DNA of 44,526 nt from the IMG/VR virus record IMGVR_UViG_3300030095_002546, positions 1-44,526 of that record; one strand, written 5' to 3'. Position numbers and translations under genes: made by a program. The stretch is from a virus (lineage: Duplodnaviria; Caudoviricetes). Of the stretch, positions 6,629-25,327 are shown piece after piece; position 1 is the stretch's first letter; each line of letters begins with the position of its first letter. Below the pieces are notes generated by a model that ran no database searches, had not been told where the DNA came from, and saw only the letters and a program-made list of their open reading frames with translations.

Positions 6629-6989
6629 TTATTTCCTTTATGTTATATTTCCAATTTTTAATTTCTAGGTTAGGTTCACCTGATTCGAATATTAAGTTTG
6701 TATTTTCATATTTTGATTTTTCTATAGTGTTCATAAAGATGGTGTAATCATAATATTTTCTATAGTGATTTAAAGGACAAATAAAATCAACAATACAATC
6801 TTCAACCATATTAGATAAAGTTCTCATTCTCATTGCTTGTATTTTTCTGCCGTTTATTTCAAAGTGCCAATCATTAAACATTTTTCTTACATCATCACCA
6901 TTAAAGTTTGGTATCTTATAATGTTCAGCAAGTTGTTTTGCTAATGTGGTTTTACCGGAACCACTATGTCCGTAAATTAATATTTTCAT
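6606..6989 (-). CDS. Adenylylsulfate (APS) kinase-like P-loop kinase
   Basis: Walker A GHSGSGKTT, NGDDVRKMFNDWHF..GR, VDFICP and FE motifs of short CysC-like phage proteins. Only 127 aa. Confidence 0.65.
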   Translation of the reverse strand: MKILIYGHSGSGKTTLAKQLAEHYKIPNFNGDDVRKMFNDWHFEINGRKIQAMRMRTLSNMVEDCIVDFICPLNHYRKYYDYTIFMNTIEKSKYENTNLIFESGEPNLEIKNWKYNIKEIIDEINLL

Positions 6990-7694
6990 CTAATAAGTTC
7001 CAAATGCCCAAAGTCTCTCTTTACACCAAACACATACTTTACAAGGTAGTGTTACTTTATCTGGCCAACCAATACAACTGGCAGTTAAAGGAAATAATGT
7101 ATCTAAAACACCATACTTAACATACATATCTTTAACATGACTTTTATCTTTTTGCATAAAAGGACTATAGTAGTGAACATGTTTACCACTAGGTGTCATA
7201 TTTTGCCCCCAAGGACTTCTTGTTTTTTGTCTTCTTTTTTCTAATATTCCATGGCCTTCATCAACATCTAATTTAAATTCTTTAATTGCTTCTTCTGGTG
7301 GATGTGAAGTCATACCGTTTAAACATAAATCTGGTTCGTGAACAATTTTTAATTTTAATTCTTCTTGTCTATGAAAGATTGATTTAGGGTCTTTTTTAGG
7401 ATCCCATTCAGTTTTTGTTTGGTCTATAGTTTTTGGATATTTTCTAACACTATACTCAAATGTATGATGAGGTAATATATTTACTTTTGGATATTTTTCT
7501 TTAACAAAATTATATACTGCCTTGGCCTCTTTTAAATTAGGTCTACCAATATCTGAACCTGACCAAACTAAAAATGTTTTATCAGGCATAACATCACAGG
7601 CATGATAGAATAGAATTGCCGAATCAGCACCACCTGATAACGACATGAATACCATTTCTGCTTTTTTTATTCTATAGTCTTCTACATCAATCAT
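6990..7694 (-). CDS. QueC-like PP-loop ATP pyrophosphatase (paralog A)
   Basis: PP-loop SLSGGADS and C-terminal TASC..PCKVCVWCKER metal-binding motif. Start revised to ATG 7694, which overlaps the upstream stop (ATGATTGA). Confidence 0.75.
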   Translation of the reverse strand: MIDVEDYRIKKAEMVFMSLSGGADSAILFYHACDVMPDKTFLVWSGSDIGRPNLKEAKAVYNFVKEKYPKVNILPHHTFEYSVRKYPKTIDQTKTEWDPKKDPKSIFHRQEELKLKIVHEPDLCLNGMTSHPPEEAIKEFKLDVDEGHGILEKRRQKTRSPWGQNMTPSGKHVHYYSPFMQKDKSHVKDMYVKYGVLDTLFPLTASCIGWPDKVTLPCKVCVWCKERLWAFGTY

Positions 7695-8343
7695 AACCAA
7701 ATGCCCATTTTTTCTCTTTACACCATTCACATTTACCACAAGGTTTGGAAAAGAAGTTTGTAGCGTCAGCAAAACCAATACAACTCCATGTTAAAGGTGC
7801 TAATGTTTCTAATAAATTAAACTTTACATATAAGTCATAGATAAACTTTTTATCTACATTAACCCAAGGTCTTATTAAATAACCACCTCTAATTCTTTCA
7901 GAAATATCTTTGTCGTTATTGTGTATTCTTTCAGATTGCATAGCTTTCATTCCAATTTGGTGCATAACATCTGGTGGTGGATTTGCAGTTCTTCCACCAT
8001 AGATATGAGTTATATTATTTTCTACACAATGTTTAGTTAAACCTGCTGAGTCTTTTTTAGTTTTAGGAACAATCCAATCTTTAGTATTATCCCATGTAAG
8101 CATATCGTGTATTTTTACTTTAGGAAATTGTTCTCTTAAAAAATTAATAATGTTTTGTACATTTTCTGGAGATGTTGGTCTTGTATTGTCAATACCGTGC
8201 ATAGGATAAACTTCGACATTTAAATTATTATCAGTTATATATTTACATAATAGATAAGTCATTAAAGAAGAATCTAAACCACCAGAATTACTAATAGCTA
8301 TTTTGTTAACATCTTTATCTATGAAGATTTGTTCAGGTATCAT
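7687..8343 (-). CDS. QueC-like PP-loop ATP pyrophosphatase (paralog B)
   Basis: PP-loop SNSGGLDS and TWSC..PCGKCEWCKEK motif. Start revised to 8343 (ATGA overlap with the upstream gene). Confidence 0.75.
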   Translation of the reverse strand: MIPEQIFIDKDVNKIAISNSGGLDSSLMTYLLCKYITDNNLNVEVYPMHGIDNTRPTSPENVQNIINFLREQFPKVKIHDMLTWDNTKDWIVPKTKKDSAGLTKHCVENNITHIYGGRTANPPPDVMHQIGMKAMQSERIHNNDKDISERIRGGYLIRPWVNVDKKFIYDLYVKFNLLETLAPLTWSCIGFADATNFFSKPCGKCEWCKEKKWAFGYD

Positions 8344-9116
8344 TTCCAATAATCCTTTATCCAATCAAAATCACAATCATGTATTGTATCTAATTTTTCA
8401 GCACCAGCAAAATGTACTATTTTAATATCATCATGTGGTTTATCAAGTATCATATATTCTTTACCAAACTCTTTCATATACTTTAATTGATGATAGTGGT
8501 TTCTATCTTTTTCACTATTGACTTTAACAATCCATTCGCCAGGCATGTGAGTTATTTTTACACCATTCTCTAGGCAAGTATCTTCAACAAAGTTTTGTTC
8601 TCCATAATATTTATAGTGTACTGTACCATTCTTAAAATAGTGTAAACACCACTTGTCAATACTCTTTGATGATTTGGTAAATTTCTCCCAAACAAATTTT
8701 AAAGAACCTGATTTAAATTTGTACCAACCACCATTTAATCTAACTGTATTGCCTGAATTGGGGTCGCCTTTCTTCCACCATTTTCTGTAAGTAACTATTT
8801 CGTTTTCTCCTACAGGATAGTTAATCATTTCTGTAACATCATTAACTATAATTTGGTCAATATCTAATACTATGATATCATCACCAGGTTTTTGGTCTCC
8901 AAATAAAGGGCTAAAGAATTTTAGTTTATGCCAATGCAGTTTTATATTAGACCATTTTGGCAACATAATAACTCTATCAGCTTCAACTTCTTTTGTATCA
9001 GACAAACAAATAAATTCAAAAGGTACTTTACAATTTGCTTTTAGTCCTCTATAGAGTTTAGATACATACTCTGGTTTATATTTGCCTTCAAAATATACTG
9101 TAAATATTTTTATCAT
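8340..9116 (-). CDS. GT-A-fold glycosyltransferase-like protein
   Basis: KYKPEYVSKL, WHKLKFF, LDID (DxD), GEQNFV and KIVHFAG motifs. Paralog of 6050-6628. Confidence 0.7.
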   Translation of the reverse strand: MIKIFTVYFEGKYKPEYVSKLYRGLKANCKVPFEFICLSDTKEVEADRVIMLPKWSNIKLHWHKLKFFSPLFGDQKPGDDIIVLDIDQIIVNDVTEMINYPVGENEIVTYRKWWKKGDPNSGNTVRLNGGWYKFKSGSLKFVWEKFTKSSKSIDKWCLHYFKNGTVHYKYYGEQNFVEDTCLENGVKITHMPGEWIVKVNSEKDRNHYHQLKYMKEFGKEYMILDKPHDDIKIVHFAGAEKLDTIHDCDFDWIKDYWK

Positions 9117-9475
9117 TTAACTAACTTTCCGTCTGCTCCATATTTAAATTCTTTTTTCCATAATTTTTGTGTACCATCATCATTAACTGTACAATATCTT
9201 TTACATACTTTTGGCGCCTTATCATAGTTTTCTGGTGTCGTAATATTTGTATAAAACTCATTCCATTCTGGAGAGTCTATAATATCTTCTATTGAGTTAT
9301 TGTTTTCTAACAACAATTCTTCTTTCATTAACTTCATTAATTGAGTGTCGGTTTCTGGATTAACTGTATCACACCAACAACAAGGTAAAATAAAACCTTT
9401 AGCACTATGACCATATGTTTTTGAATGGTCTTGTTTATCGTGTTTATATAAACATTGAGGTTTTAATTTGTTCAT
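9113..9475 (-). CDS. Stand-alone SPASM/twitch-like Cys-rich Fe-S protein
   Basis: C...GFILPCCWC...SIEDII.S.EW..F...CKRYC pattern of SPASM/twitch domains. ATGA-coupled to the upstream radical SAM gene. Confidence 0.6.
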   Translation of the reverse strand: MNKLKPQCLYKHDKQDHSKTYGHSAKGFILPCCWCDTVNPETDTQLMKLMKEELLLENNNSIEDIIDSPEWNEFYTNITTPENYDKAPKVCKRYCTVNDDGTQKLWKKEFKYGADGKLVK

Positions 9476-10089
9476 TGTCCCGCCTTATGTTTATGAGTAT
9501 CTAATCTTAAATCAGAATTTTTAGGTTTTAATGATTGTTCAATACTAAACCTAGATGATAAAGTTGTCTTAAACATTATCTCTTTAAATTCTGCCATTTG
9601 CCTACAAGCGTCTATGTCATTTTCATTATAATCAAAGACAAGATATTGCCAAACTATTTTAAGACCTTTTTCTCTACCAGCACACATTAAATCCCATATT
9701 TTAGAACCATCTTGATTTACTCTATATTTGTGGCTTTCTTCTGGTACGCCATCAAGACCAAACTCCCACCTTGCGTGTTTACAGGCGTCAAAGGCTTTCA
9801 TATACCAGTCCCAAGGTTTATGCGAAGCCGCCGTATGTATATTAACTTTTCTATCATGGCACATTTTTAACATGTCAATAAAATTTGGATTAAAGATAGG
9901 GTCTGATACTTGACCACAAAAAGTTATTTCATCAAAATAATCATATATCTTTTTAAACTCTTCCATAGACATATCATGGCCTGGTACTTTTTGTCCTCTT
10001 TGTCTAAAGATTTCTCTATTACACTTTGAACATTGTAAAGTACATCTATAAGTTATATCTAAATTAATACATTTTCGTCTAGTTATCAT
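9472..10089 (-). CDS. Radical SAM enzyme (short core)
   Basis: CTLQCSKC (CxxxCxxC), CGQVSDP (GGEP-like), FGLDG...YRVN and WQYLVF.YNE. Confidence 0.85.
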   Translation of the reverse strand: MITRRKCINLDITYRCTLQCSKCNREIFRQRGQKVPGHDMSMEEFKKIYDYFDEITFCGQVSDPIFNPNFIDMLKMCHDRKVNIHTAASHKPWDWYMKAFDACKHARWEFGLDGVPEESHKYRVNQDGSKIWDLMCAGREKGLKIVWQYLVFDYNENDIDACRQMAEFKEIMFKTTLSSRFSIEQSLKPKNSDLRLDTHKHKAGQ

Positions 10090-11212
10090 ATTGTGGCCAT
10101 AGTTCAGCGTGGTTCATATTTCTTTGTTTAGAAAGTTTTTTCATATACTCTATACCTGCTTTTAAGTCTGTAGAGTTTCCTCCTTTTTTCAATTCACTTA
10201 ATACATAAGCAAACTCTGGTATATGTTCGTATCTATTAATAAGTTGTTGTTTTTTCTCCTCTGGTAGATTTCTTATTGATAATATTTTTGGTGTCATAAC
10301 AACACTAGTAAATTTTACTTCTATATTAAAGTTTTGTTTGTAGTAATCTTTAATTGATGTCAAGTCTTCCACATTTAATAATGAGGTTGTACAATTTAGA
10401 TTTCTTGTTTGAAAGTCTTTAGTCTCTCGTAAATTAGCTTCAAATTTTTTAATGTCAATAGGATATCTGATATATTCTAATTTTTTACCATAATGGTCAC
10501 ATGATATACCCCAATGTATTTTTTTAAACTTGTTTTCTATATCCCATACTGAATGGTTTTTATATCTAAGCTCTGTAAAATTCGTGTCATATTGCAACTC
10601 TATATTTTTGGCATGTTCTTCTGGTATTAAGTCTAACATTTCCCAATGTTTAGGTAACTGTAAAGGTTCGCCACCTGTAATATGAATAGTGTCAACTCTT
10701 TCAATGTTATCAATTATGTCATTTACAATCAAATACCATTCTTTACTTTTTACTGATACATAATCACTTTCAGAAAAGAAGTCCCAGCCTTCTGGATATA
10801 TTTTATTCATTTCATTTCTTCTTGTAGAAGAGTTGTAAGGTATACACATATAACAACTTAAATTACAAAAGGTACCATTAATTCTTAATTTGAGTGTAAC
10901 TTTATCTACACTTAATGGTGGCATTTTGTTTTTTAATCTTTTTAATGCTTTTGTCCTGTATGATGTACCAGTAGATTCTTCCATTGTATAACATTTTATA
11001 CATTCTGGCAACTTTTCTCCACAAAGCACAGCGTTCCTTTTCTCTTCCATTTCTGGTGAGTTAAAGTATTCAAAAGGTTTGTGTGTTTGCGATTTGTATT
11101 TCCTAGAAACTGGTGTAGTTCTAGCATGACAACATAATCTATATTCGCCAGAGCTGTCGGCATAGATTTCGTTGAATATCAAAGGGCAATAAGTTCCATT
11201 ATCTTTCATCAT
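10079..11212 (-). CDS. Radical SAM enzyme with N-terminal twitch-like domain
   Basis: N-terminal CPLIF...GEYRLCC...CIKCY; core CNLSCYMC, ITGGEP, YDTN and ISCD..G...EYIRYP. Confidence 0.85.
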   Translation of the reverse strand: MMKDNGTYCPLIFNEIYADSSGEYRLCCHARTTPVSRKYKSQTHKPFEYFNSPEMEEKRNAVLCGEKLPECIKCYTMEESTGTSYRTKALKRLKNKMPPLSVDKVTLKLRINGTFCNLSCYMCIPYNSSTRRNEMNKIYPEGWDFFSESDYVSVKSKEWYLIVNDIIDNIERVDTIHITGGEPLQLPKHWEMLDLIPEEHAKNIELQYDTNFTELRYKNHSVWDIENKFKKIHWGISCDHYGKKLEYIRYPIDIKKFEANLRETKDFQTRNLNCTTSLLNVEDLTSIKDYYKQNFNIEVKFTSVVMTPKILSIRNLPEEKKQQLINRYEHIPEFAYVLSELKKGGNSTDLKAGIEYMKKLSKQRNMNHAELWPQYDN

Positions 11213-11220
11213 CTAATCCA

Positions 11221-11228
11221 TATTTAGG
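11221..11228 (-). promoter_or_regulatory. Putative T4-type late promoter box (CCTAAATA on the minus strand)
   Basis: TAAATA core lies 8 nt before the ATG of the minus-strand operon and mirrors the plus-strand box. Confidence 0.55.
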
Positions 11229-11244
11229 CAGCTCCTAGGAGAGG

Positions 11245-11252
11245 TATAAATA
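11245..11252 (+). promoter_or_regulatory. T4-type late promoter TATAAATA
   Basis: Exact gp55-dependent late consensus in intergenic DNA, 8 nt before ATG 11261. Confidence 0.75.
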
Positions 11253-11260
11253 GTATTGTT

Positions 11261-11908
11261 ATGATGAATATATTTAAAGTGATTAGTGAATTTACTAATG
11301 ATGATTTTGTTAAAAAATTGAGTAAGGCATATTATAATAATAATGACCTATTACAGGCTCTAGGTAAATCTAGCGAAGATGAGATTGTTAAATCTATTGC
11401 AAACTCATATAACGATAATCAACAGAAAAGTAAAGACTGGTTAATTGAAAATGCCAGCAATTTCTTTAGTGCATATGAAGTACCAAATATTTTGGTGGCT
11501 GCTGGTTGGTATGGTTTACTTGCTTCAAAGATACAAGAGGAAACTAAATTTCAAGTTACTAGTTTTGATATGGATCCAAAATGTCAAGAGATAGGCCAAC
11601 ATCTACATAAAAATGTAAAATTCAAAACTGCTAATATAAGTGATTTTGAATACACACATAATTATAATATTATTATTTGTACCTCATGTGAACACATAGA
11701 ACAAAAAGTATTAGATGAATGGTTATCTAAAAGAAAGAAAAGAGCTTTGGTTATTTTACAATCTAATAATTATAACGAGTTAACGGAACATATAAATTGT
11801 AATAGAGACTTAAAAGAATTTGAAGAGAAGTGTGGTCTAAAAACAATTCATTGGAGTGGAGAATTAGACCTTGGAAAATTTAAAAGATTTATGGTGGTAG
11901 GAATATAA
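11261..11908 (+). CDS. Class I SAM-dependent methyltransferase
   Basis: Motif I-like LVAAGWYG, acidic SFDMD, IICTSCEH and LQSNNY...HINC. Confidence 0.75.
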   Translation: MMNIFKVISEFTNDDFVKKLSKAYYNNNDLLQALGKSSEDEIVKSIANSYNDNQQKSKDWLIENASNFFSAYEVPNILVAAGWYGLLASKIQEETKFQVTSFDMDPKCQEIGQHLHKNVKFKTANISDFEYTHNYNIIICTSCEHIEQKVLDEWLSKRKKRALVILQSNNYNELTEHINCNRDLKEFEEKCGLKTIHWSGELDLGKFKRFMVVGI

Positions 11909-12519
11909 TGTACGAAAAATTATTAAGATATGGTGATATTATACCTTTGAAGTTTAAATGTCATATTAAAAAACTAGAAGAGGAAATAAAAGACTTTGAT
12001 TGGCACAAATACAATCCAAGAACACCAAACAATAGATACGGATTAAGTGTTACAAGTTTAGATGGCAAACTAGGTGGTATTGATTTAGATTCATTTTATC
12101 AGTATAATAAATTACACGGTACTCAATATAAAGAATCTAGTTTTAAAACTTTTACAGATGTTTACTATAAGAGTGAAGAGACACAAAAATTAGTAGAACC
12201 TTGGGGAAAACATTTAGAAAGAACACACTTTATAAACATAAGAAAAGGTGGTTTCTTTCCACCACATAGAGACCAAATAAGTTTAGAACAAAAAAACTTT
12301 AGAATTCTGGTGCCTATTAAAAACTTTAATTTTCCTTACCATGTGTTTATGTTAGATAATCATTTACAAATGTTAGATGAGGGTAGAGCTTATTTTATTA
12401 ACACAAACAAAGTACATAGTTTATTTGGTTTTGATGATGATACAACTATGTTAGTAATGAATATAAATTGTAATGAAGAAAGTATGAGGATAGTATGTCA
12501 AAATTTTCAGCAGAAGTAA
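11908..12519 (+). CDS. Fe(II)/2OG oxygenase, Asp/Asn beta-hydroxylase-like
   Basis: GGFFPPHRD (HxD) and YFINTNKVHS (distal His) in a cupin fold. Confidence 0.7.
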   Translation: MYEKLLRYGDIIPLKFKCHIKKLEEEIKDFDWHKYNPRTPNNRYGLSVTSLDGKLGGIDLDSFYQYNKLHGTQYKESSFKTFTDVYYKSEETQKLVEPWGKHLERTHFINIRKGGFFPPHRDQISLEQKNFRILVPIKNFNFPYHVFMLDNHLQMLDEGRAYFINTNKVHSLFGFDDDTTMLVMNINCNEESMRIVCQNFQQK

Positions 12520-13190
12520 TATATAAAGAAAGAATAGTAGCAACAAAATTAGGCCTTGATGTAAGTCCAGAAGACCAAATGAAAATTGCAGAAGATATTG
12601 GTCCTGTTTTTAAACCAGATGATGATAGACATAGTGTAATGAGAATTATTCCTGGTATGCAAAGAGTTACCAGAGGTGCATTATTCGGAACAGACGAAAC
12701 ACTAGATTGGCATGCTAATAAACCTAGCGACCCCGATAGAGCAGGTATTGTTTGGATTTATGCGAAAGAAGGAACAAAAGGAAGTAGAACAAGTTGGATT
12801 GACAACTATAAGGCATATCAAGACTTGTCAGATGATGTTAAAGAACAAATTAAAGATATAACTTTTACATGTGGATTTAAGAAAGGATTATATACACCAG
12901 ACCCTTTTTTTAAAGAACATCATAATAAGAAACTAATACACAATCTAATACATACAAATAAGGCAGGACTTACTGGAATGTTCTTTCCATTCTATCAAAT
13001 AATGGCCTGGAATGGCGACCAAGAATTATTTGATATGTTACAAAGCCATTGTATGCAAGAGAAATACCAGTACCACCATGATTGGGAGGATGGCGATTTA
13101 GTATTAAGTGACCAATGGTTGACTTTACATAAAAGGTGGGCTTTTGATAAAATGGATAAAAGAGTGATGAATAGGATACCAATTGATTAA
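12495..13190 (+). CDS. TauD/TfdA-family dioxygenase-like protein
   Basis: DWHAN, T.WID...AY..L and HDWEDGDLVLSDQWLTLHKR...RVMNR match the TauD layout. The first motif is HxN rather than HxD. Confidence 0.75.
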   Translation: MSKFSAEVIYKERIVATKLGLDVSPEDQMKIAEDIGPVFKPDDDRHSVMRIIPGMQRVTRGALFGTDETLDWHANKPSDPDRAGIVWIYAKEGTKGSRTSWIDNYKAYQDLSDDVKEQIKDITFTCGFKKGLYTPDPFFKEHHNKKLIHNLIHTNKAGLTGMFFPFYQIMAWNGDQELFDMLQSHCMQEKYQYHHDWEDGDLVLSDQWLTLHKRWAFDKMDKRVMNRIPID

Positions 13191-13608
13191 AGAAATTACT
13201 ACTGCTCAAGCCCTTACATTTAACTTTCAAGACGAATGGCACCAAGACTTTTATAAGTGGAAAAAACATTTGTTAATTGGTAGTAAGTATTGGCCTCAAC
13301 TTAAAAAATTCTATACTAGTCCTGAGCAATGGTTAGGACATTTTGGACATAGTGGATTAGAAGCAGTATATTTTTATACTATTTGCGAGAATGAAATGTA
13401 TGATGGTTTTTTAGAATCATCTAAACATGGTGCAGGTATAAAATTAGGAAGATATCTTCCTGAATACACAAAAGATTTATGGTCTGTAAACTGGAGTTGT
13501 TGTAACAGAAAGCATGTAGATTTTAATAGGCGTTTAGGTTATGAGGTTGCAAGTATGGCAGATTTAACACCAGACTATAGGGGGTATCTATTATGTCGAA
13601 AGAAATAA
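13183..13608 (+). CDS. Putative GNAT-fold protein
   Basis: SKHGAGIKL resembles the acyl-CoA binding loop and VDFNRRLGY resembles GNAT motif B. Weak match. Confidence 0.4.
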   Translation: MIKEITTAQALTFNFQDEWHQDFYKWKKHLLIGSKYWPQLKKFYTSPEQWLGHFGHSGLEAVYFYTICENEMYDGFLESSKHGAGIKLGRYLPEYTKDLWSVNWSCCNRKHVDFNRRLGYEVASMADLTPDYRGYLLCRKK

Positions 13609-14711
13609 TGTCGTTTGCTAAACTTAATTCTCACACGGATAGGGTGGTCTCAGCTAAAGATTATACACTTACTCTGGAGAATGGCAAGCTTTTAACAGAT
13701 ACAATGTCAGGATTATGGACAACACCTTTAGGTTATAGTAATGACATTATGAAAGCTGCAATGACAAATCAACTTAATAAACTTCCTTATGCAAGTAATT
13801 TTTCAGGCAATCAAAGTGAGACTACAGAAAGATATGCCGAAGCATTATGTAAAAAAACAAATATGAATAGAGTTTACTTTACAAACTCTGGTTCGACTGC
13901 CGTAGAAACTGCTATAAAACTTACAGGTAAAAATGTTGCAATATGTGGCGAACATAGTTACCATGGTTCTACTATATTAAGTGCCAATGTTTCAGACCAA
14001 GGTATTAATAAGTTTTGGGGTATTCAAAACCCTATGAGTATTTACAAGTTTGAAAGAGCAGATGATTTATATGCTAACTGTAAAGGTCTTTTTGATTTAT
14101 CATTTGTAATTATAGAACCAGTTGTTGGTGCAGGTGGTGTTTATGAATGGGAACACTCATGCTGGGATATTTTAGAAGAATATCAAGAATCTGGTGGTTA
14201 TGTTATACTTGATGAAACAGTTACAGGTTTTGGAAAGTTAGGACCTTTGTTTGGTTTTGAAAAATATAATTTTAAACCTGACATATTAGTATTAGGCAAA
14301 GCAATAACAAACGGATACTTTCCAATGGGTGCTTGTTTAATAAATGAAAGAATTGAGAAACAAAATAAAATGTTTAATCACGGTTTTACTTTTTCAGGTC
14401 ATCCAGTTGGTTCTAGTGCAGGTTTTGTAATGTTAAAAGAATTAGAACAAAGAAACGAATGGTTGCTTAACCATGATAGATTTAGTATTAGATTAGAAAA
14501 TGTAAAAGAACATAGACAGATTGGTTGTATGGGTGCAATAGACTTTGAAACACCAAAACAATCATTAACATTTATAAAGAAGATGAGAGAAAGAGGTTAC
14601 ATATTAGAAGACGGCTCAGAAAATATGACAACAGCTGTATATTGTTTGCCTTATATAATGACGCAAGAAGATTATCACAAATTTATGGAGAATATTAAAG
14701 AATGTATTTAA
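13593..14711 (+). CDS. Class III PLP-dependent aminotransferase (BioA/omega-transaminase-like)
   Basis: DTMSGLWT.PLGY, FTNSGS.AVE.AIK, SYHG, IEPVVGAGG, DETVTGFGKLG, PDILVLGKAITNGYFP and HGFTFSGHP. Confidence 0.9.
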   Translation: MSKEIMSFAKLNSHTDRVVSAKDYTLTLENGKLLTDTMSGLWTTPLGYSNDIMKAAMTNQLNKLPYASNFSGNQSETTERYAEALCKKTNMNRVYFTNSGSTAVETAIKLTGKNVAICGEHSYHGSTILSANVSDQGINKFWGIQNPMSIYKFERADDLYANCKGLFDLSFVIIEPVVGAGGVYEWEHSCWDILEEYQESGGYVILDETVTGFGKLGPLFGFEKYNFKPDILVLGKAITNGYFPMGACLINERIEKQNKMFNHGFTFSGHPVGSSAGFVMLKELEQRNEWLLNHDRFSIRLENVKEHRQIGCMGAIDFETPKQSLTFIKKMRERGYILEDGSENMTTAVYCLPYIMTQEDYHKFMENIKECI

Positions 14712-15508
14712 CAGCAACATACCCTATTCAATTTCCTGAAGTTACAGATACCATTAAAAGATATTTTAATGATGTTTATGACCATGATTATATAACTCAA
14801 AATAAAGAAGAAATGGTCAAATCATTTATTAGGTCTTTTCCTGAATGGTTTAATAAAGGCAAGTTTAAAGTAAAAGGACTTAAAAATTTTCCTTATGTGT
14901 ATATTACAAATGGCATAACAGAAGCTATACATGTAACTATGCTTGAACATGGTTTAAGACCTGTTGTTGCAGACAAAGAATATAAATCGTATCTTGCTCA
15001 TGCAAGAATATATGCTGAGAGTGGAAATACATTAAGAAATAGAACACCATTTTTAAGTTTACCTTTCTATGATACGGCAGAAGAACACCCTACTACACAA
15101 ACTATATTAAAAGGACCTGCTTTCATAGACCTTGCGTGGGCAGGTAATTGTGGTTTACAAGGTACATATGATTTAAGTAATGTCAGTTATGCTTCTTTTA
15201 GTTTTAGTAAGATGTTTGGTATACAATACCATAGAATAGGCATATTATACTCTAAAACACCAATCAAACATTTTGAAATGTATAAAGATGTATCATATAA
15301 CAATTTAGTTGGTCTTGGTATGATAAATCAGTTGACTGGATTTAAGCCTGATTACTTCTATGATAAATATAGACATGTGGCAGACTCATTCTGTACAAAA
15401 TTAGACTTACAACCAACAAAGAGTCTATGGATGGGTCGAAGTAAAAAGGACACAAAAGTGCCCTTATTTTATGAATGGTTAGAATGGAAAAATGAGAACG
15501 GAAAATAA
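14702..15508 (+). CDS. Short fold-type I PLP-dependent enzyme (class I/II aminotransferase-like)
   Basis: ITNGITEAI, FIDLAW (DxA) and SFSKMFG...RIG (PLP lysine motif). Confidence 0.7.
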   Translation: MYLTATYPIQFPEVTDTIKRYFNDVYDHDYITQNKEEMVKSFIRSFPEWFNKGKFKVKGLKNFPYVYITNGITEAIHVTMLEHGLRPVVADKEYKSYLAHARIYAESGNTLRNRTPFLSLPFYDTAEEHPTTQTILKGPAFIDLAWAGNCGLQGTYDLSNVSYASFSFSKMFGIQYHRIGILYSKTPIKHFEMYKDVSYNNLVGLGMINQLTGFKPDYFYDKYRHVADSFCTKLDLQPTKSLWMGRSKKDTKVPLFYEWLEWKNENGK

Positions 15509-16262
15509 AGAGTTTTATCACATTGCTCAAAATAATGATTGGGTAGATATAAGTAAGTTTTGGAGTTGGCCAACACAGGAGATTCTTGAAGATGTGAAGA
15601 ATATACCTGATAAATATTGGAGTAAACCTTTTGATGGTGGTAATAAAGACAATCAAAAGGGTTATGATGATTATGAAAGTAATCGTTCTTTACCTGGTAC
15701 CGAAGAGGGTAGTCAGTTAATTGAAGCGAGAGGTTGGAGAACGGCCATGTTTCTTAATGAGACAGGCTTTAGTAAAGACCAAATATTGAAATTTAAACCT
15801 GTTTACAAAGACGAATGGGAATATAAAGACAGATGGAATTATATTAAGAATGAAAGAAAGTGGACAGACATTGCAGAATTCAGTCCTACTTTAAAGAAGT
15901 TTTTTGAAAGTGCGATATTTCCATATTTACATGTTGGTTATATTTTTGTAACTGCTTTAGAACCAGGTGGAATAGTAACTAAACATGATGATATACCAGA
16001 CGGCAGTATACCGTTATTAGGTGGTGAAAAATTACATGCTTTTGATATGTGTAATGTTTTTAACTTATGTTTAAATCATGTAGATTCATGTGAGGCAGTT
16101 TTTAACAATAAGGTTATGCCTTCATATGAGGGTTGCTTAATGTGGACAAACACAGGAAAGAAACATTGGGTCGTTAACATGAATAGAGAGACACAATATA
16201 AAATTATATTTCAAGCTCTATTTAAAAAAGAGTTTAGAAAAAAGGTAGTAAAAGAATTATGA
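15492..16262 (+). CDS. Fe(II)/2OG oxygenase, Asp/Asn beta-hydroxylase-like
   Basis: LEPGGIVTKHDD (HxD), NLCLNH and NTGKKHWVVN (distal His). Confidence 0.7.
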   Translation: MRTENKEFYHIAQNNDWVDISKFWSWPTQEILEDVKNIPDKYWSKPFDGGNKDNQKGYDDYESNRSLPGTEEGSQLIEARGWRTAMFLNETGFSKDQILKFKPVYKDEWEYKDRWNYIKNERKWTDIAEFSPTLKKFFESAIFPYLHVGYIFVTALEPGGIVTKHDDIPDGSIPLLGGEKLHAFDMCNVFNLCLNHVDSCEAVFNNKVMPSYEGCLMWTNTGKKHWVVNMNRETQYKIIFQALFKKEFRKKVVKEL

Positions 16263-16993
16263 TTATAGACAATCACAAAGAGTTCCAATTAGATGGAACA
16301 CAATTTACAAATATACATAAAGAGCTAATGAAATATTTTAGTGATAACGGTATTGATGTAGAAATTTCAGACGATTTAGTTGGACTGAAAAAACACCTTA
16401 TGTCTCAAAGTAAAGATGACTACCCTTATGGTATGGATACTTTTTTTGATGACGAAGAGTTAGCAACAAAAGGAGAATTTTTTGGTTTAATTAGACAAAT
16501 GAAATCTTTTGTTTTACTTTTAAAGAAAGATGACGAAGTTATAGCTACATATGCAGCTAGACAAATGCCAGTAGAATATTTTATTGATGTTTGCGCTAGC
16601 AAGAAAGAGGGTGTTCGAAGAGGAACAGATGTAGTCAAACCTCAAAAATTATTAGGTTTAAAAAATTCTTGGTATAGTTCTTGTCAATGGACTTCTAAAA
16701 ATCATAGAGGTAAAAAATTTGGTGTATTTCTTGACCACTTAAAAAAGAATATTTTGTTTGATATGATGAATGAAGAAAATAATCCTGTACAACTTAATTA
16801 CGCATTGCAAAGAGAAGCATTGAATGATTATCATGTCAAACATTTAGGTTATGAAGCTTCAGAATATTTTATGACTTATGACAATGGTATTGGTGGTGCA
16901 GGTACGGCTGATGATAAAAAGTATAGTATTGCTTATGTTATGGCCGAAACTTGGAAGAACAAACAAGATGAAATTAAAAAGTTATACAGCTAG
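16259..16993 (+). CDS. Putative GNAT-fold protein
   Basis: WTSKNHRGKKFG resembles GNAT motif A (V.P.YRGKG.G), and LGYE resembles motif B. Confidence 0.45.
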   Translation: MIIDNHKEFQLDGTQFTNIHKELMKYFSDNGIDVEISDDLVGLKKHLMSQSKDDYPYGMDTFFDDEELATKGEFFGLIRQMKSFVLLLKKDDEVIATYAARQMPVEYFIDVCASKKEGVRRGTDVVKPQKLLGLKNSWYSSCQWTSKNHRGKKFGVFLDHLKKNILFDMMNEENNPVQLNYALQREALNDYHVKHLGYEASEYFMTYDNGIGGAGTADDKKYSIAYVMAETWKNKQDEIKKLYS

Positions 16994-17534
16994 ACCTGAC
17001 CAATTAACGCCAGAATACAGAATACAGTTTGAAAAAATAATAGATGATATCTTAAAGCAACAATCTGACCCATTGTGGAAGAATTGGGGCAATTTTCATT
17101 TAGATGACCAATTAGCTTTGACAGTAGGTGTCGAAGACCATAAGGTTAAGGTTATATCAAGTATCTATAATAGAGAGACTTGGAAACCAAATGTGTTTAG
17201 AGTTTTAAATAGATTTTATTACACTAAAGATATTAGAGAAAAAGGTGGTACAAAGAAGTATGACGGCGAATATCATTTAGCTCAAATATTTCTACATCAA
17301 CAAATTCAGTTTATAAAAGAGAATTATGATTATGAGTTCTACTTTGTAAGCAGACAAAGAGGTCATAAGTTTTTAAAACTATGGGCTCAACATTATAATG
17401 AAGATTATGGTGGTAATTTAACAGTAAGTGAGGACAGATATTGGGTAACGCCATCAAAGAAAGACTATTATGGTGGTTGTCAAAGACTAATTTATCCAAA
17501 GGACCTTGAAATACCCTTTGAAAAAGGAGTATAA
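16968..17534 (+). CDS. Hypothetical protein, possibly GNAT-like
   Basis: Start revised to ATG 16968. RVLNRFYY..DIR and FVSRQ motifs; last gene of the plus-strand island operon. Confidence 0.45.
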   Translation: MKLKSYTARPDQLTPEYRIQFEKIIDDILKQQSDPLWKNWGNFHLDDQLALTVGVEDHKVKVISSIYNRETWKPNVFRVLNRFYYTKDIREKGGTKKYDGEYHLAQIFLHQQIQFIKENYDYEFYFVSRQRGHKFLKLWAQHYNEDYGGNLTVSEDRYWVTPSKKDYYGGCQRLIYPKDLEIPFEKGV

Positions 17535-17787: not shown

Positions 17788-18129
17788 ATGGCTGCTAGAG
17801 CAAATTTAGTTATAGACCAAGGGACAAATTTCTCTTCGGATGTAACAGTCAAAGACCTGAACGCAAATGCTTTTGACCTCACAGGTTATACAGCAACTGC
17901 CAAGATGGCAAAAGGTTACGAATCAACAAAAACTAGAAGTACAATCACGGCTACAGTATCAAGTACGCCTTCAAGTGGTCTAGTTGCCTTAACTATGACA
18001 GCCGCTCAAACGGCAGCTCTATCTCCTGGTCGTTATGTTTATGACTTGGAAATCACACAAACCTCTAGTGGAAATATAACTAGAGTGATTGAAGGCATTA
18101 TTACCGTTACTCCTCAAGTTTCTTTATAA
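17788..18129 (+). CDS. Baseplate/fibre attachment protein (BppU-N-like Ig fold)
   Basis: NLVIDQGT.F, DLTGYTA, LT..QTAAL.PGRYVYDL and RVIEGIITVTP, conserved in marine T4-like phages. Confidence 0.7.
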   Translation: MAARANLVIDQGTNFSSDVTVKDLNANAFDLTGYTATAKMAKGYESTKTRSTITATVSSTPSSGLVALTMTAAQTAALSPGRYVYDLEITQTSSGNITRVIEGIITVTPQVSL

Positions 18130-18175: not shown

Positions 18176-18421
18176 ATGGCAGATATAACAGCAAAGATTA
18201 ATACTAGTAGCACAGGACCTCAACAAGTTTCAGTAACGCTACCATCTGGTGCAGCTGCTGATAATTCTTCTTTACAATTAAAATTATTAGGTGATGTTGA
18301 TACGACAGATTTAAATGATGGTGCATTAATACAGTATCGTTCTTCGGATGCTAAATGGGTCGCTAGAACCGAAATAGTAACGACAACAGGAACATTAACA
18401 TTTAACGGCGGAAGTTTTTAA
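18176..18421 (+). CDS. Small fibre connector protein ending in NGGSF
   Basis: L..LGDVD...L.DGALIQY...KW fibre module and a C-terminal NGGSF. Confidence 0.65.
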   Translation: MADITAKINTSSTGPQQVSVTLPSGAAADNSSLQLKLLGDVDTTDLNDGALIQYRSSDAKWVARTEIVTTTGTLTFNGGSF

Positions 18422-18424
18422 TCT

Positions 18425-20140
18425 ATGGCAACAGTAATACAACTCAAAAGAAGTTCGGCAACTTCAGCACCTAGTACACTAAAATTAGGTGAAGCAGCTT
18501 ATACATACGGAACAGGAACACAGGCCAATAACGGTGATAGATTTTTCATTGGTACTGGTGGTGTTGACGGAAACGGTGACGCAAACTCGATTGATGTAAT
18601 CGGTGGTAAATATTTTACAGCGTTATTAGACCATGTTACCGGAACATTAACAGCAAATTCAGCAATATTAGTTGACAGCAACAAAGCTGTTGACGAGGTA
18701 ATCGTTGGTAACCACGCAAGTAATGGTGGTACTTTAAAATTAAACGAAGGTACTAACAATGGTACGGCGTTTATAGGACTTAAAGCACCTAATCAAGTTA
18801 CTTCAACAACAACATTCGTACTACCTGACGGAGATGGTTCTGCCGGCCAATTCCTTAAAACAGACGGTTCAGGTAATTTAGATTTCGCTACAGTTGACCA
18901 GATTTTAACTTTTCAAGATGACAGTAATGCTACAGAAGATTATGCTACTAACGAAATTTTTGATTTCGAAGGTGGTTCAGGTATTACAACTGCTTTATCA
19001 GCAAACAAATTAACAATATCAGCAACCAATATTACTAACTCTAACTTATCTGGTTCTGCTGCTATTTCAAACGCAAACATAGCAAATCCAAATGTTACAA
19101 TAGGTTCAACGCAAGTTAACCTAGGTGCTACGGTAACAGCATTTGCAGGTTTAACAAGTTTAGTAGTTGACGATTTAACACTTAACGGTCAAGATGTATC
19201 TACAACTGCTTCAAATAAAGATATTACTTTAACTCCTCACGGAACAGGTACAGTTACAGTTCCTAGTGGTTACGAAGATAGAAGTGGTTTTACAACTAAC
19301 TCATTAGCAAACAAAGCTTATGTTGACCAAGTTGCTCAAGGTTTAGATACTAAACCATCTTGTAGAGTTGGTACAACTGCTAACTTAACAGCAACTTATT
19401 CAAACGGAAGTTCAGGTGTAGGTGCAACTTTAACAAACTCTGGTACACAGGCAACATTATCACTTGATGGTGTTTCGCCAAGTGTTGCAGATAGGGTTTT
19501 AGTTAAAGACCAATCAACAGCTGCTCAAAACGGTATCTATGTTGTAACTAATGTAGGTTCAAACTCATCAAATTGGGTTTTAACAAGAGCAACTCCTGAA
19601 GACCAACCAGCAGAATTAACAGGTGGTTCTTTCGTATTCGTTGAAGAAGGTACTGCTAACGCCAATAACGGTTATACATTTACACACACAGGCGCTCCAA
19701 CATTTGGTTCAACTGCTTTAGATGTATCACAATTCTCTGGTGCAGGTCAAATTACAGCAGGTGCAGCTTTAAGTAAAACTGGTAACCAAATGGATGTTGA
19801 AGTAGATGATTCTTCAATTGAAGTTAGTTCAGACGCATTAAGAGTTAAAGCTTCAGGTATTACAGACGCAATGTTAGCTGGTTCAATTTCAAGTGCTAAA
19901 CTTACTGACCCATTATACTTTGCAGATGAATCATCAACACAAGGTCAAGTTAGACTTGGTCAAGTATTAGAATTTTTAGCAGGAGAAGGATTAAACACTA
20001 CTGCTACTGGTAATAAATTAACAATCGCTGGTGAATTAGCAACTACATCAAATATTGGTGTGGCTTCTTTTCATTCGGACAACTTTGCAGTTGCTTCGGG
20101 TGCAGTTACAGTTACAACGATTGATGGAGGAACATATTAA
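18425..20140 (+). CDS. Tail fibre protein
   Basis: N-terminal IQLKRS...LKLGE.AY (Mtd/hyaluronidase-N-like), LPDGDGSAGQFLKTDGSGNL, ANKAYVD, DRVLVKDQ...QNGIY and C-terminal IDGGTY. Confidence 0.85.
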   Translation: MATVIQLKRSSATSAPSTLKLGEAAYTYGTGTQANNGDRFFIGTGGVDGNGDANSIDVIGGKYFTALLDHVTGTLTANSAILVDSNKAVDEVIVGNHASNGGTLKLNEGTNNGTAFIGLKAPNQVTSTTTFVLPDGDGSAGQFLKTDGSGNLDFATVDQILTFQDDSNATEDYATNEIFDFEGGSGITTALSANKLTISATNITNSNLSGSAAISNANIANPNVTIGSTQVNLGATVTAFAGLTSLVVDDLTLNGQDVSTTASNKDITLTPHGTGTVTVPSGYEDRSGFTTNSLANKAYVDQVAQGLDTKPSCRVGTTANLTATYSNGSSGVGATLTNSGTQATLSLDGVSPSVADRVLVKDQSTAAQNGIYVVTNVGSNSSNWVLTRATPEDQPAELTGGSFVFVEEGTANANNGYTFTHTGAPTFGSTALDVSQFSGAGQITAGAALSKTGNQMDVEVDDSSIEVSSDALRVKASGITDAMLAGSISSAKLTDPLYFADESSTQGQVRLGQVLEFLAGEGLNTTATGNKLTIAGELATTSNIGVASFHSDNFAVASGAVTVTTIDGGTY

Positions 20141-20376
20141 TGTGGAGTAGAATTATAGATTTTTTTGTTAAAGGAGCCCCTGGTTTTAACTTTAAAACTT
20201 ATGCAAAAAAGAAACCATTGATGTTAAAAAAATCAATGGAAGTTAATACTAAAGACTTAAATAAAAAAACAAAAGTAGAATTAGAAAAACTAGGTAGAAA
20301 GTTAGGTATAGAATTAGATAGAAGACTGACAAAAGCTAAGTTAGTATCAAGAATTAAGAAACAATTGAAGAAGTAA
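20140..20376 (+). CDS. Small basic protein with Rho-N/HeH-like helix-extension-helix motif
   Basis: LNKKTKVELEKLGRKLGIELDRRLTKAKLV; Lys-rich, unlike the neighbouring fibre genes. Confidence 0.55.
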   Translation: MWSRIIDFFVKGAPGFNFKTYAKKKPLMLKKSMEVNTKDLNKKTKVELEKLGRKLGIELDRRLTKAKLVSRIKKQLKK

Positions 20377-20381
20377 ACTAA

Positions 20382-20801
20382 ATGGCTACAGTTCTTAAAC
20401 CTAAAAGAAGTTTCACAGCTACCTCGGTACCAGCAACAGGAGATTTGGTACAAGGTGAGATTGCAGTTAACTTTGCTGATAAGAAATTTTACGGTAAAGA
20501 TAGTAACAATGCAATCGTAGAAATTGGTGGTGCCGCTGCTATTACTTTGCAACAGGTAACTGCTAGTGGATTTGAAACTACAAACCCTATTAAATTAAAT
20601 AATAGTGATTTAGTTTTTGAAGGGACTTCCGACGCTTACGAAACATATGTAAGAGCGGTCAATCCGACTAGTGATAACACGGTATTGATACCAAATGTAT
20701 CTGGTACCATTGTTACTACTGGAAATTTAACAAACGCAACAGGTGAGGCATTATCAACAGAAGGTGATAGTCTTGCTTTTGCAATAGTATTTGGTGGATA
20801 A
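20382..20801 (+). CDS. Short tail fibre segment
   Basis: N-terminal LKPKRS...LVQGEIAVN..DKKFY, then FEG...YET...PTSDNT..IP, and C-terminal LAFAIVFGG. Confidence 0.7.
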   Translation: MATVLKPKRSFTATSVPATGDLVQGEIAVNFADKKFYGKDSNNAIVEIGGAAAITLQQVTASGFETTNPIKLNNSDLVFEGTSDAYETYVRAVNPTSDNTVLIPNVSGTIVTTGNLTNATGEALSTEGDSLAFAIVFGG

Positions 20802-20804
20802 AGA

Positions 20805-21152
20805 ATGGCAAGTGCATTTAAAAACGCAGGATTAACAGTACCAACAGTAAACGGCGCAGGTGCGAATTTGTACACGGCTGGAACGAGTGGTGGTGGAGTT
20901 ATTCATGCTTTATATGTAACTAACAAGTCAGCAGTTAATACTGCTAATGTAGATGTATTGTGTACAACAGACGGTGGCAGTACATTTAAATACTTGGCCA
21001 AGTCTGTATCAATTGCTCAAGGTGATACTCTAATGATGGATAAACCTATCAATTTAGAACAAAACGATATTATAAGAGTGGTTGCAGAAGTAAGTATGGA
21101 TTCATCAGCACCAGATGTAGAAGCATTTGCTTCTATTTTGGAAGTGAGTTAA
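20805..21152 (+). CDS. Fibre adaptor-like beta-sandwich protein (paralog of 24968-25327)
   Basis: LYT, LYVTN, YLAKSVSI..GDTL...KPINLE..D.I and ASILE motifs. Confidence 0.6.
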   Translation: MASAFKNAGLTVPTVNGAGANLYTAGTSGGGVIHALYVTNKSAVNTANVDVLCTTDGGSTFKYLAKSVSIAQGDTLMMDKPINLEQNDIIRVVAEVSMDSSAPDVEAFASILEVS

Positions 21153-21603: not shown

Positions 21604-24600
21604 ATGGCAGATTTTGTTTTAGGTAGACTAAAATTTACATACAAAAGTAATTGGGCGACTTCGACTGCCTATATTAAAGATGACATTGTTTCGTATGGTG
21701 GTAATGCCTTTGCCTGTTTGCTCAACCATACATCAGGAACATTCGAAACAGATTTAGCAGCTAGTAAATGGAATAAATTAACAGCAGGTCAAGAATGGAA
21801 AGGCACATATGCCAATTCAACTGCTTACAAAGTAGATGACCTTGTTAAATACGGTTCAAGTGTTTACATTTGTACTTCAGCACATACTAGTTCATCAACA
21901 GTTTTAGATGTCAATAAATTCAGTTTATATGTTGGCGGTGTAGAATTTGAAGACAGTTGGTCAAACTCAACTGCTTATCAAATTGGAGATATCGTAACTT
22001 ACGGTGGTTATTCTTATATCGCCGAAGCGGCTGCAACTGGCCAAACACCATATAACAACGCAAGTTATTGGAAAGTTTTAACAACAGGTTTTAAAGTAGA
22101 GGGTACATGGGCTTCAGGAACAGTTTATGAAACTGGAGATGTTGTAAACTACGGTGGTAATGTTTATGTATTTAAAGTTACTACATCAGCAGGTCAATTA
22201 CCAACTAATACATCTTACGCTGATTTATTAGTAGAAGGTGTATCACTACAAGGTGATTATTCAGGTGGTACTGCTTACTTAATTGGTCAAACAGTAATAT
22301 ATCAAAATTCAACTTATAGAGCAAAACGAGATAACCAAAATGTTCTACCAACTGCTTTAGGTTCTGATTGGGCATTATATACCCAAGGTGACCCAGCAGG
22401 TGTTATGTCTGCTGAAGGTGATTTAATCACTAGAGACGGAACACAAGCACAAAGATTACCAATAGGTCGTGCTGGTGATAGATTAGTTGTTGGTGCAGAT
22501 GGTCTTACATTAAAATATGCTTCGCCAAATCATGGTCAACAATTATATGTAAGTGCTCAAGGTTCAGATTCAAATCCAGGTACAGAAGAATTACCTTTTG
22601 CAAGTATTAAGAAAGCTTGTCAAATGGCTACTTACAATGGTATTTCTCAAATGGGTGCAATTTCAGGTGGTACAGGCGGAACACCAGGAACATATAGAGG
22701 TGTTTCAGTAACAGGTGGTTCAAGTACAGGTACTCTTGCAGATGTAACTACAGACGGTTCATCAGCACCAATAATTACAATCGTTAAAAACGGACAAGGT
22801 TGGGCAGAAGGAAATACTGCTACAATCGCAGCCAATGTGGTTGGAAGTCCAAGTGCAGCTATCACATTTACTGTAGAAACAATTACAGGTGGTGATACTA
22901 TTAGAGTTAACGGTGGTACTTACGAAGAAACTTTCCCAATTAGAGTTCCACCTAATGTAACAATTTTCGGTGACTCTTTAAGAGGAACAAAAGTAGAACC
23001 AGCAGCTGGTAACTCAACAGAATGTTTAACTATCGGTACAGTTGGAGCTAATGACGCTTCAAGAACACCAGGAACATATACTAACATTGCAGTTACAACA
23101 GCAAGTGGTTCAGGTGTAGGTTTAAAAGCAACAGTAGTAATTGATGGTTCATCTACAATTACGGTAACACCAACTTTTGGTGGTTGTTACTTTGCAGTTG
23201 GTGATGACTTAACTATTGCAGACGGTTTATTAGGAGGTGGCGGTGGCGCTACTTTAACTATGAAAGTTGCAAGTGTTAAAGCAAACAATGTAACTTCAAT
23301 GTTCTTAACGAACAATGCAAACTACATTTCATTTATGACTATGCAAGGTATGACAACAGGTGCTAATGTAGTATCTCTTGACCCTAGTGGTGCAATTACA
23401 ACTGCTTCGCCATATATTCATAACTGTACTTCTGTTAATACAGGTACTACAGGTATAATGATTGATGGTAATGCTCAAGCGACTGGTAACAAGTCAATGA
23501 TTTCAAATGACTTTACTCAAATTAATACAGATGGTAAAGGTGTTTCAGTTGTCAATGGTGGTCGTGCTGAGTTAGTATCAGTCTTCACATACTATTGTGA
23601 TAAAGGTTTAAATACAGAATCAGGTGGTACAATTCGTGCCCTTAACTGTTCAAACGCATACGGAGAATACGGTGCTTATTCAACAGGAGTTTTAAGTGGA
23701 GAAAGTCCTGACGAAGTACAATTAAGAGGTCAACAATTTATCTATCAAGCTGCTCAAGGTACAGGTCCTGCCGGTTATACTGCTGGCGAAGGCGATACTA
23801 TGGTCGGTGGAACATCAGGTGTAACTGCTACACTTGTTAATCAAGTAAGTTCTACTAGAAAATTACAGATAGAAAGTGTATCTAACTCTCACGGATTTAT
23901 TCCTGGAGAAACAGTTACAATTACAGACTTAACAGATAGTTCAACTAAAACTTTCAAAGTTACAGAAACAGCTGCTGATATGATAGATGGTGCAACTAAA
24001 ACTATTACAGGTGTTACCGCTGCTAACCCAGGTGTCGTAACATCAAATGGTCACGGTATGCCAAACGGTACAAAAATCGTGATTTCAGGTGTTGTAGGTA
24101 TGACTGAATTAAATGGTAATACTTACTATGTTGCCAACACAGCAACTAACACATTTAGTTTATCATCAACATCAACTAGTGTAACAAATGTTAACACATC
24201 AGGTTTCACAGCATACGGTTCTGCTGGAACAATTACACCAAAACAACCATTAACAGGTCAAACAGGTTACTTATTCAATGTAGATAGTACATCAACATTG
24301 TTATCAAGTGCAACTGCTGTTAAAGTTGGTTCTAACTTCCAGTTTGCAGGTGACTCTACATACTATAGGGTTACTGCCGTATCTGAAACAGATACAACGA
24401 ACAAACAAGCTTTGATTGCAATTACGCCAGAGCGTACTGCTTCAGCGGCTGATAATACAGAAGTTGATATAACTAAAAACTTCTCGAACATTCGTTTAAC
24501 AGGACATGATTTCTTGTCAATTGGTACTGGTTCATTTGCCGACACTAATTATCCAAATAGTGTAGGTGCAACGCAACCTTATGACCAATCAAGAGAAACT

Positions 24601-24942
24601 ACTGAATTGCTAGGTGGTCGTGTGTACTACACTTCTACTGACCAACTTGGTAACTTTAGAGTTGGTTCGCAGTTTAAGATTAACCAGGCAACAGGTTCGG
24701 CAACTCTAAACGCAGATAGTTTTGACCTTTCGGGTCTAACACAATTACAACTTGGTTCTATTGGTGCTCAACTTGGTGCAACAATTAATGAGTTCAGTAC
24801 AGACGGAACACTCGGCGGAAATAGTGATACTGCCGTTCCAACTGAACAGGCCGTGAAAACTTATGTTACCACTCAAATAGGTGGTATCTCATCCGGTATA
24901 TCAATGGGTAAAGCGATTGCAGCTGCCATTGTTTTTGGATAA
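21604..24942 (+). CDS. Large multidomain tail fibre/adhesin
   Basis: N-terminal aromatic W...Y...D.V.YGG repeats (CBM5/12-like), YVS..GSDSNPGT...PFASIKKA beta-helix start, FCCH-like ITGVTAANPGVVT..HG domain, STDQLGNFRVG, AVPTEQAVKTYV and C-terminal KAIAAAIVFG. Confidence 0.85.
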   Translation: MADFVLGRLKFTYKSNWATSTAYIKDDIVSYGGNAFACLLNHTSGTFETDLAASKWNKLTAGQEWKGTYANSTAYKVDDLVKYGSSVYICTSAHTSSSTVLDVNKFSLYVGGVEFEDSWSNSTAYQIGDIVTYGGYSYIAEAAATGQTPYNNASYWKVLTTGFKVEGTWASGTVYETGDVVNYGGNVYVFKVTTSAGQLPTNTSYADLLVEGVSLQGDYSGGTAYLIGQTVIYQNSTYRAKRDNQNVLPTALGSDWALYTQGDPAGVMSAEGDLITRDGTQAQRLPIGRAGDRLVVGADGLTLKYASPNHGQQLYVSAQGSDSNPGTEELPFASIKKACQMATYNGISQMGAISGGTGGTPGTYRGVSVTGGSSTGTLADVTTDGSSAPIITIVKNGQGWAEGNTATIAANVVGSPSAAITFTVETITGGDTIRVNGGTYEETFPIRVPPNVTIFGDSLRGTKVEPAAGNSTECLTIGTVGANDASRTPGTYTNIAVTTASGSGVGLKATVVIDGSSTITVTPTFGGCYFAVGDDLTIADGLLGGGGGATLTMKVASVKANNVTSMFLTNNANYISFMTMQGMTTGANVVSLDPSGAITTASPYIHNCTSVNTGTTGIMIDGNAQATGNKSMISNDFTQINTDGKGVSVVNGGRAELVSVFTYYCDKGLNTESGGTIRALNCSNAYGEYGAYSTGVLSGESPDEVQLRGQQFIYQAAQGTGPAGYTAGEGDTMVGGTSGVTATLVNQVSSTRKLQIESVSNSHGFIPGETVTITDLTDSSTKTFKVTETAADMIDGATKTITGVTAANPGVVTSNGHGMPNGTKIVISGVVGMTELNGNTYYVANTATNTFSLSSTSTSVTNVNTSGFTAYGSAGTITPKQPLTGQTGYLFNVDSTSTLLSSATAVKVGSNFQFAGDSTYYRVTAVSETDTTNKQALIAITPERTASAADNTEVDITKNFSNIRLTGHDFLSIGTGSFADTNYPNSVGATQPYDQSRETTELLGGRVYYTSTDQLGNFRVGSQFKINQATGSATLNADSFDLSGLTQLQLGSIGAQLGATINEFSTDGTLGGNSDTAVPTEQAVKTYVTTQIGGISSGISMGKAIAAAIVFG
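21640..22380 (+). repeat. About 5 tandem ~47-aa repeats in the fibre N-terminus
   Basis: WATSTAYIKDDIVSYGG / YANSTAYKVDDLVKYGS / WSNSTAYQIGDIVTYGG / WASGTVYETGDVVNYGG / YSGGTAYLIGQTVIYQN. Confidence 0.85.
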
Positions 24943-24967
24943 ATAATTAAAAGGAGAATAGAAAAAT

Positions 24968-25327
24968 ATGTCAGCACCAAATATAGTCAATGTAGCAACG
25001 ATTACAGGTAAATCCGTTGGCGCAGCTTTGGGAACAACTACTACTACTGCTTTACTTACAAACGCTTCTTCATCAAACAAAGTGTTTAAAGTAAACTGTA
25101 TTATTGTTTCTAATATTCAAGGTACAGATACAACTACAACTATCTCGTATTATGACGGTTCAACTGATTGGAATTTAGCAAGTACAATCAATGTTCCTGG
25201 TAATACAGCTCTTGTAGTTTCTGATAAAAACTCAGCAATATATCTTGAAGAAGGCGACTCAATTCGAGGTGGAGCTTCAACAGCTTCAAGACTTGAAGCG
25301 GTTATTTCTTACGAAGAATTATCTTAA
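24968..25327 (+). CDS. Fibre adaptor-like beta-sandwich protein (paralog of 20805-21152)
   Basis: SD AAGGAG; PNIVNV.TI.GK, IIVSNI, LAST.NVP....L...K...IYLEEGDSI and ISYEE. Confidence 0.65.
   Translation: MSAPNIVNVATITGKSVGAALGTTTTTALLTNASSSNKVFKVNCIIVSNIQGTDTTTTISYYDGSTDWNLASTINVPGNTALVVSDKNSAIYLEEGDSIRGGASTASRLEAVISYEELS

Follow-up and report, generated by a model that had tools for sequence, protein, structure and literature searches.

The window, by which we mean the whole 44.5-kb stretch of DNA analysed, is a virus-record fragment of a T4-like marine myophage and carries T4-type portal, sheath, tube and terminase genes. Its gene cluster matches that of Pelagibacter phage Mosig gene for gene, which makes a SAR11-type host plausible. 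Metabolic-looking ORFs lie on both strands between the VrlC-like and the fibre genes (5593-17534) and were judged by eye to be aminotransferase-like and dioxygenase/hydroxylase-like; Mosig has annotated genes of aminotransferase- and dioxygenase-like kinds at the same place. Next to them is a run of small and large fibre genes in which a short C-terminal motif (here "plug") is twice followed by a gene with a particular N-terminal domain (here "socket"). The features are as follows:

17788..18129 (+): small adaptor, 113 aa, 5' of the chain; PHROG 3304 'L-shaped tail fiber protein assembly', E 8e-19
18176..18421 (+): anchor protein, 81 aa, the first segment, with plug 1 at its end; from the sequence
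18404..18418 (+): plug 1, NGGSF, C-terminal, N-type; from the sequence
18425..20140 (+): fibre segment, 571 aa, that opens with a socket and closes with a plug; PHROG matches (tail fibre, virion structural)
18425..18616 (+): socket 1, a gp37-N/Mtd_N-like domain that contains a loop insertion (571-aa protein, residues 1-64); A1 alignment and A2 profile match
20123..20137 (+): plug 2, DGGTY, C-terminal, D-type; from the sequence
20140..20376 (+): basic ORF, 78 aa, between plug 2 and socket 2; weak PHROG 3281 match, E 9e-4
20382..20801 (+): third segment, 139 aa; from the sequence
20382..20537 (+): socket 2, homologue of the T4 gp37 N-terminal domain, residues 1-52; PHROG long tail fibre distal subunit

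The anchor protein, which has 291 relatives of 44-142 aa, ends TFNGGSF. The 571-aa protein begins MATVIQLKRSSATSAPSTLKLGEAAY and ends TIDGGTY, and the 139-aa protein begins MATVLKPKRSFTATSVPATGDLVQGEIAV. All motifs and coordinates quoted for the plugs and sockets in the original prediction were correct. Of the 56 non-nested ORFs of the window, just 2 have an end that fits [DNE]xGx[FY], namely those of the 81-aa and the 571-aa protein, and the only socket-profile matches in the window were the 571-aa and 139-aa proteins. The 78-aa basic ORF is not part of the joint; it is missing from several relatives, and there plug 2 abuts socket 2 (e.g. L092 and L097). The 113-aa adaptor had no match in a PDB sequence search. 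A gene of 111-118 aa stands at its place in Mosig, P-HM2, Melnitz and DC31 and is absent there in P-SSM2, and the adaptor is a possible virion attachment point of the chain.

The same arrangement of short anchor, socket-plus-plug fibre and second socket was present in the cultured phages Mosig EXVC030M, P-HM2, Melnitz, P-SSM2 and Limnohabitans DC31, where the orthologues are annotated as hypothetical, tail fibre, YadA, peptidase S74 or gp7. In Mosig, the orthologue of the 571-aa protein is 81% identical across the first 70 aa. The third segment differs among these phages (118-2,423 aa) and is remote in P-SSM2. In the window, it ends in another terminal motif, AIVFGG, 5' of a 115-aa gene. Such a second motif pair occurs at 20778-21152 and at 24910-25327, with proteins ending A(I/F/Y)xIVFG(G/S) followed by proteins of 109-123 aa (MAS[AST]FKN... 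or MSAPNIVNV...), and was seen again in relatives. Between these positions, 21604-24942 encodes a 1,112-aa fibre with five CBM_5_12 stretches in its N-terminal part.

A profile of 28 second-type sockets (A2) matched socket 1 of the window at E 5.6e-8, indicating that the two N-terminal domains are homologous, and aligned with residues 1-53 of T4 gp37 at E 2.2e-13 (hhalign). The 139-aa N-terminus was found by tblastn in 704 phage records, mostly T-even gp37, and matched PHROG families of the long-tail-fibre distal subunit. The AF2 monomer model of socket 2 (pLDDT 86) has four short strands, and a BFVD fold search with the socket gave 63 matches below E 0.001, with Gp37- and Mtd_N-annotated proteins among them. 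By hhalign, tblastn and BFVD fold alike, the downstream subunit begins with a gp37 N-terminal domain, as it does in the T4-type joint.

The original prediction had called this domain Mtd-N-like. At superfamily level the label stands, via intermediates, but the window domains have no Pfam match and the T4 gp37 N-terminus is their closest relative. Neither window socket protein matched Pfam Mtd_N (PF18454) at E 0.01, and the sockets did not reach its gathering threshold of 26.3. Close relatives reach PF18454 at E 4e-5, and 5 of the 23 members of profile A1 match Mtd_N; there was also an ESM Atlas lead at 0.90. Of 21 sequences chosen by hand in addition to Mtd and T4 gp37, 7 plug-downstream genes exceed the Pfam Mtd_N cut-off. 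By sequence, the window sockets are related to Mtd_N and are not strict members. A2 gave no direct alignment with BPP-1 Mtd (E 0.28). PDB profile searches for a solved joint returned only free Mtd, a match that is partly circular because Mtd was in the query, or noise, including a designed beta-propeller. Foldseek found nothing in the PDB below E 0.001; the streptococcal phage hyaluronidase fibre 2c3f (E 1.8) was not counted as a match.

The plugs have in common the form hydrophobic-[DN]-x-G-x-[FY]-end. The (N/D)GG(S/T)(F/Y) motif originally proposed is real in both window proteins but too narrow, in that the residue after D/N (G, C, A, F or Y) and the penultimate residue vary. T4 gp36 ends SVQDFGYY, directly 5' of gp37 (MATLKQIQFKRS), and the motif fits 6 of the 6 further Straboviridae gp36 ends examined (DYGEF, DFGYY, DFGEF, DFGAY, DFGYYS and DYGTF). 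On the upstream side, NGGSF and DGGTY of the window thus share with the gp36 ends DFGYY, DFGEF, DFGAY, DYGTF and DYGEF a five-residue pattern that was defined within this analysis. In plug 2, D44, G45 and G46 were invariant among 47 orthologue ends, which had been chosen by the plug motif itself. A DNA scan for IDGGT[FY]-TAA found at least 126 loci in 2 of 64 IMG/VR parts, from which about 4,800 such stretches were estimated for IMG/VR, compared with 29 for a same-letter scramble counted in the entire collection. The codon-matched terminal form was estimated at about 1,200, compared with 29 for an internal form in which a GAN codon comes next. These counts showed that the motif exceeds chance and is confined to C-terminal ends. 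By eye, none of the 29 internal IDGGTY-[DE] matches ran in frame into a socket as a natural plug-socket fusion.

For T4, PMC3004832 describes gp36 as a trimer that binds gp37 in its N-terminal region, and PMC9603124 states that the C-terminal end of gp36 binds the N-terminal end of gp37. The window resembles this pair in its D-x-G-x-aromatic upstream end, its homologous downstream domain of ~50 aa, the adjacency of the genes and the T4-like myophage in which they lie. Together with the DFGYY end of gp36, the statement in PMC9603124 suggests that the window has the T4 gp36-gp37 joint and uses it twice. At the motif level, the predicted joint of the window is this joint, repeated in series, whereas in T4 the pair is used once among the gp34-gp38 genes examined; also unlike the T4 pair, one window protein bears both plug and socket. 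The likeness to the gp36-gp37 junction supports the pairing of plug and socket that had been proposed from the window. It does not extend to the bodies of the whole T4 long tail fibre (gp34-35-36-37): among the 24 proteins of the 44.5-kb fragment scanned with PHROG and Pfam, no body had a gp36-named PHROG match and none matched gp34 or gp35.

Because the window shares its tag with T4 gp36 and, in the fibre genes that follow, its N-terminal domain with gp37, we consider it highly probable that each terminal tag in the window docks on the gp37-N domain of the next segment, and that three segments would be chained head to tail. Alternatively, the segments might join via wider surfaces of the trimer ends, with the pentapeptide mainly capping or trimerising its own fibre and forming part of the interface. 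Conservation in the 571-aa family does reach well beyond the pentapeptide, with 13 invariant columns among the final 48 residues, and in its accessible part PMC9603124 names only the 'C-terminal end' of gp36. Against this, the plug proteins with a socket behind them, which range in length from 50 to more than 500 aa, share only their last six residues, and we regard the wider surface as unlikely.

The adjacency of plug and socket genes across genomes, as originally proposed, was strongly supported by the statistics, with a socket next to about two thirds of the sampled plugs. After exclusion of 8 of 126 plug matches with less than 250 nt downstream, a socket lay within 300 nt downstream of 77/118 plugs with profiles A1 or A4, a figure that is partly circular because A4 includes some of these downstream genes, and of 72/118 with A1 alone at 15 bits. 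A1 had been built ahead of the plug scan; by A1 alone, 68/110 plugs were followed by a socket compared with 11/418 other gene ends (odds ratio 60, p 2e-44, a p value that is overstated because only identical sequences were removed as redundant). With A1 or A4, 16/418 other ORF ends in the same loci preceded a socket, several of these being degenerate plugs or small ORFs inserted 3' of a plug. The scramble control gave 0/19 after removal of duplicates. Furthermore, a socket followed 57/89 held-out viral plug matches, 7/10 unseeded relaxed plugs, and 63/96 GTDB plug matches inside ORFs, compared with 0/23 GTDB matches without an upstream ORF. Starting from the sockets, a plug was found within 320 nt upstream in 92/92 distinct sockets (loci L008-L107); these loci are close kin, and this tally, like that of the subtypes below, comes mostly from one phage clade and is not independent.

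The pair was present, with unrelated bodies, in T-even myophages, cyanophages and podovirus-like contigs, and also in genomes of Bacillota, Acholeplasmatales, Bacteroidota and Verrucomicrobiota. In GTDB, L500 and its related loci (Acholeplasmatales/Tenericutes records) have a conserved 283-aa gene with both socket and plug, and a socket gene of 226 aa comes after it. This arrangement, present 2-3 times in each genome, is probably a prophage or mobile element.

The claim that gene order encodes physical order describes the usual tendency but does not hold throughout: 41/118 plugs had no adjacent socket, and in P-SSM2 one socket lies 112 kb off. Adjacency is thus the usual, not an obligatory, arrangement of plug and socket. 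In P-SSM2, with 326 ORFs, 2 plugs and 2 sockets were counted, and the genes of the first pair are neighbours. After the second plug, which ends at 102,569, come a small gene and gp13; the other socket opens a 617-aa fibre at 214,874 (L005; W01:C1:214874-216727), at that 112-kb distance. This remote socket gene sits beside psbA-like and small genes and ends ILALGGE before a 113-aa gene, a comparable second motif pair. Counts of plugs and sockets were also 2/2 in DC31, P-HM2 and the window, with the pairs in P-HM2 and DC31 adjacent or nearly so. Mosig has 3 motif matches and 2 sockets, and its third motif match is probably due to chance.

Among the 41 socket-less plugs, 17 belonged to proteins of 67-101 aa with a common N-terminus, encoded 5' of Gly-rich genes in podovirus-like contigs (including L112, L145, L154, L165 and L179) and all ending IDGGT[FY]. 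The Gly-rich genes resemble those for ejection proteins. The plug protein at G001:C1:29916-30149 had no Pfam or PHROG match. Podovirus G001 has 2 plugs and 1 detected socket, the socket gene being 26 kb away, and no socket was found in four other podovirus-like fragments with a plug. The socket partner of these podoviral plug proteins is probably encoded elsewhere.

It could be argued that motif and domain were inherited together as a single ancestral gene cassette, with no physical link between them, given that many sampled loci are kin and that fibre genes tend to cluster in any case. We find this very improbable: the pair is spread over phages and several prokaryotic phyla with unrelated bodies, a socket seldom comes after the other gene ends of these fibre loci (16/418), and in P-SSM2 the counts balance across 112 kb. 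Least credible of all is that the GG of the motif was selected as DNA, to give the next gene a GGAGG ribosome-binding site. The first Gly codon is GGA in 25/37 viral cases with the next start no more than 5 nt away compared with 14/87 otherwise, and the GGAGGA codons of window plug 2 (20126-20140) are spaced from the ATG at 20140 as a ribosome-binding site would be. However, the next start is more than 5 nt away in 87/124 viral plugs, 73 of these 87 have non-GGA codons, and the D/N, the terminal F/Y and the link to the socket would be left unexplained. By the codon test, a ribosome-binding site was rejected as the main cause of the GG and retained as a secondary use only.

In line with the suggestion that segments could be exchanged as cassettes, the conserved second socket was followed by bodies that differ in their C-terminal ends and range from 118 to 2,423 aa. 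These bodies measured about 122, 126-143, 148-151, 183 and 312-394 aa in relatives, and 118, 517 and 2,423 aa in cultured phages. Socket subtype was tallied over 196 distinct plug-socket pairs. N-type plugs preceded loop-insertion sockets in 49/49 distinct pairs, and D-type plugs on long proteins preceded short sockets in 102/104, the two exceptions (L148 and L135) being regex misclassifications. A universal N/D code for socket choice was ruled out by 7 D-type plugs that precede insertion-type sockets. In this clade-heavy sample, socket subtype tracks chain position, so that the 571-aa protein could be kept from chaining with itself; the two subtypes, with and without the loop insertion, could hold the two joints apart.

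In the docking model that we prefer, separately made segments, probably trimers, would be joined in the order 81 aa, 571 aa, 139 aa. The pentapeptide itself may form the binding core. With three tags per trimer, the last residue, an aromatic, would come to lie with its free carboxylate on the small beta-domain, perhaps near the conserved K/R and GE residues of the socket.

We lean slightly towards the broader view that the tag and the gp37-N/Mtd_N domain form a general docking system in tailed phages, one in which orthogonal subtypes would set the order, which would work between distant genes, as in P-SSM2 and for the podoviral anchors of 70-100 aa, and which would explain both the T4 joint and the attachment of Mtd-type adhesins. 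BPP-1 Mtd trimers sit at the ends of tail fibres (PMC2408619), and the Mtd N-terminal domain (PF18454 Mtd_N) belongs to the same domain superfamily as the window sockets. The fibre gene bbp9 (L263:4599-6125), 5' of mtd, encodes a protein whose C-terminus, ADLGGIA, resembles a plug in degenerate form but fails the motif. If such a general system is real, fibre wiring would be predictable genome-wide and segments would be exchangeable by their tags.

The T4 joint was already known as a C-terminal end binding an N-terminal end; new here are its predicted double use in series and a terminal tag that can be generalised. A literature search conducted mainly outside subscription papers (older T-even gene 36/37 work among them) and supplements found no paper naming the terminal motif or setting out a rule at motif level. 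In a 2026 T4 cryo-EM preprint (bioRxiv 10.64898/2026.03.06.709160), the distal rod was fitted at low resolution in a map filtered to about 8 A, and the accessible part of that preprint contains no description of the gp36-gp37 joint that we could find. A defined minimal tag makes this joint directly testable, and the window locus is well suited to this, as both ends sit on a single protein and specificity can be tested with four cognate and non-cognate pairs. The tag would also assign thousands of hypothetical phage genes to fibre chains. For marine T4-like phages, it may offer a route by which distal segments are exchanged while attachment is kept.
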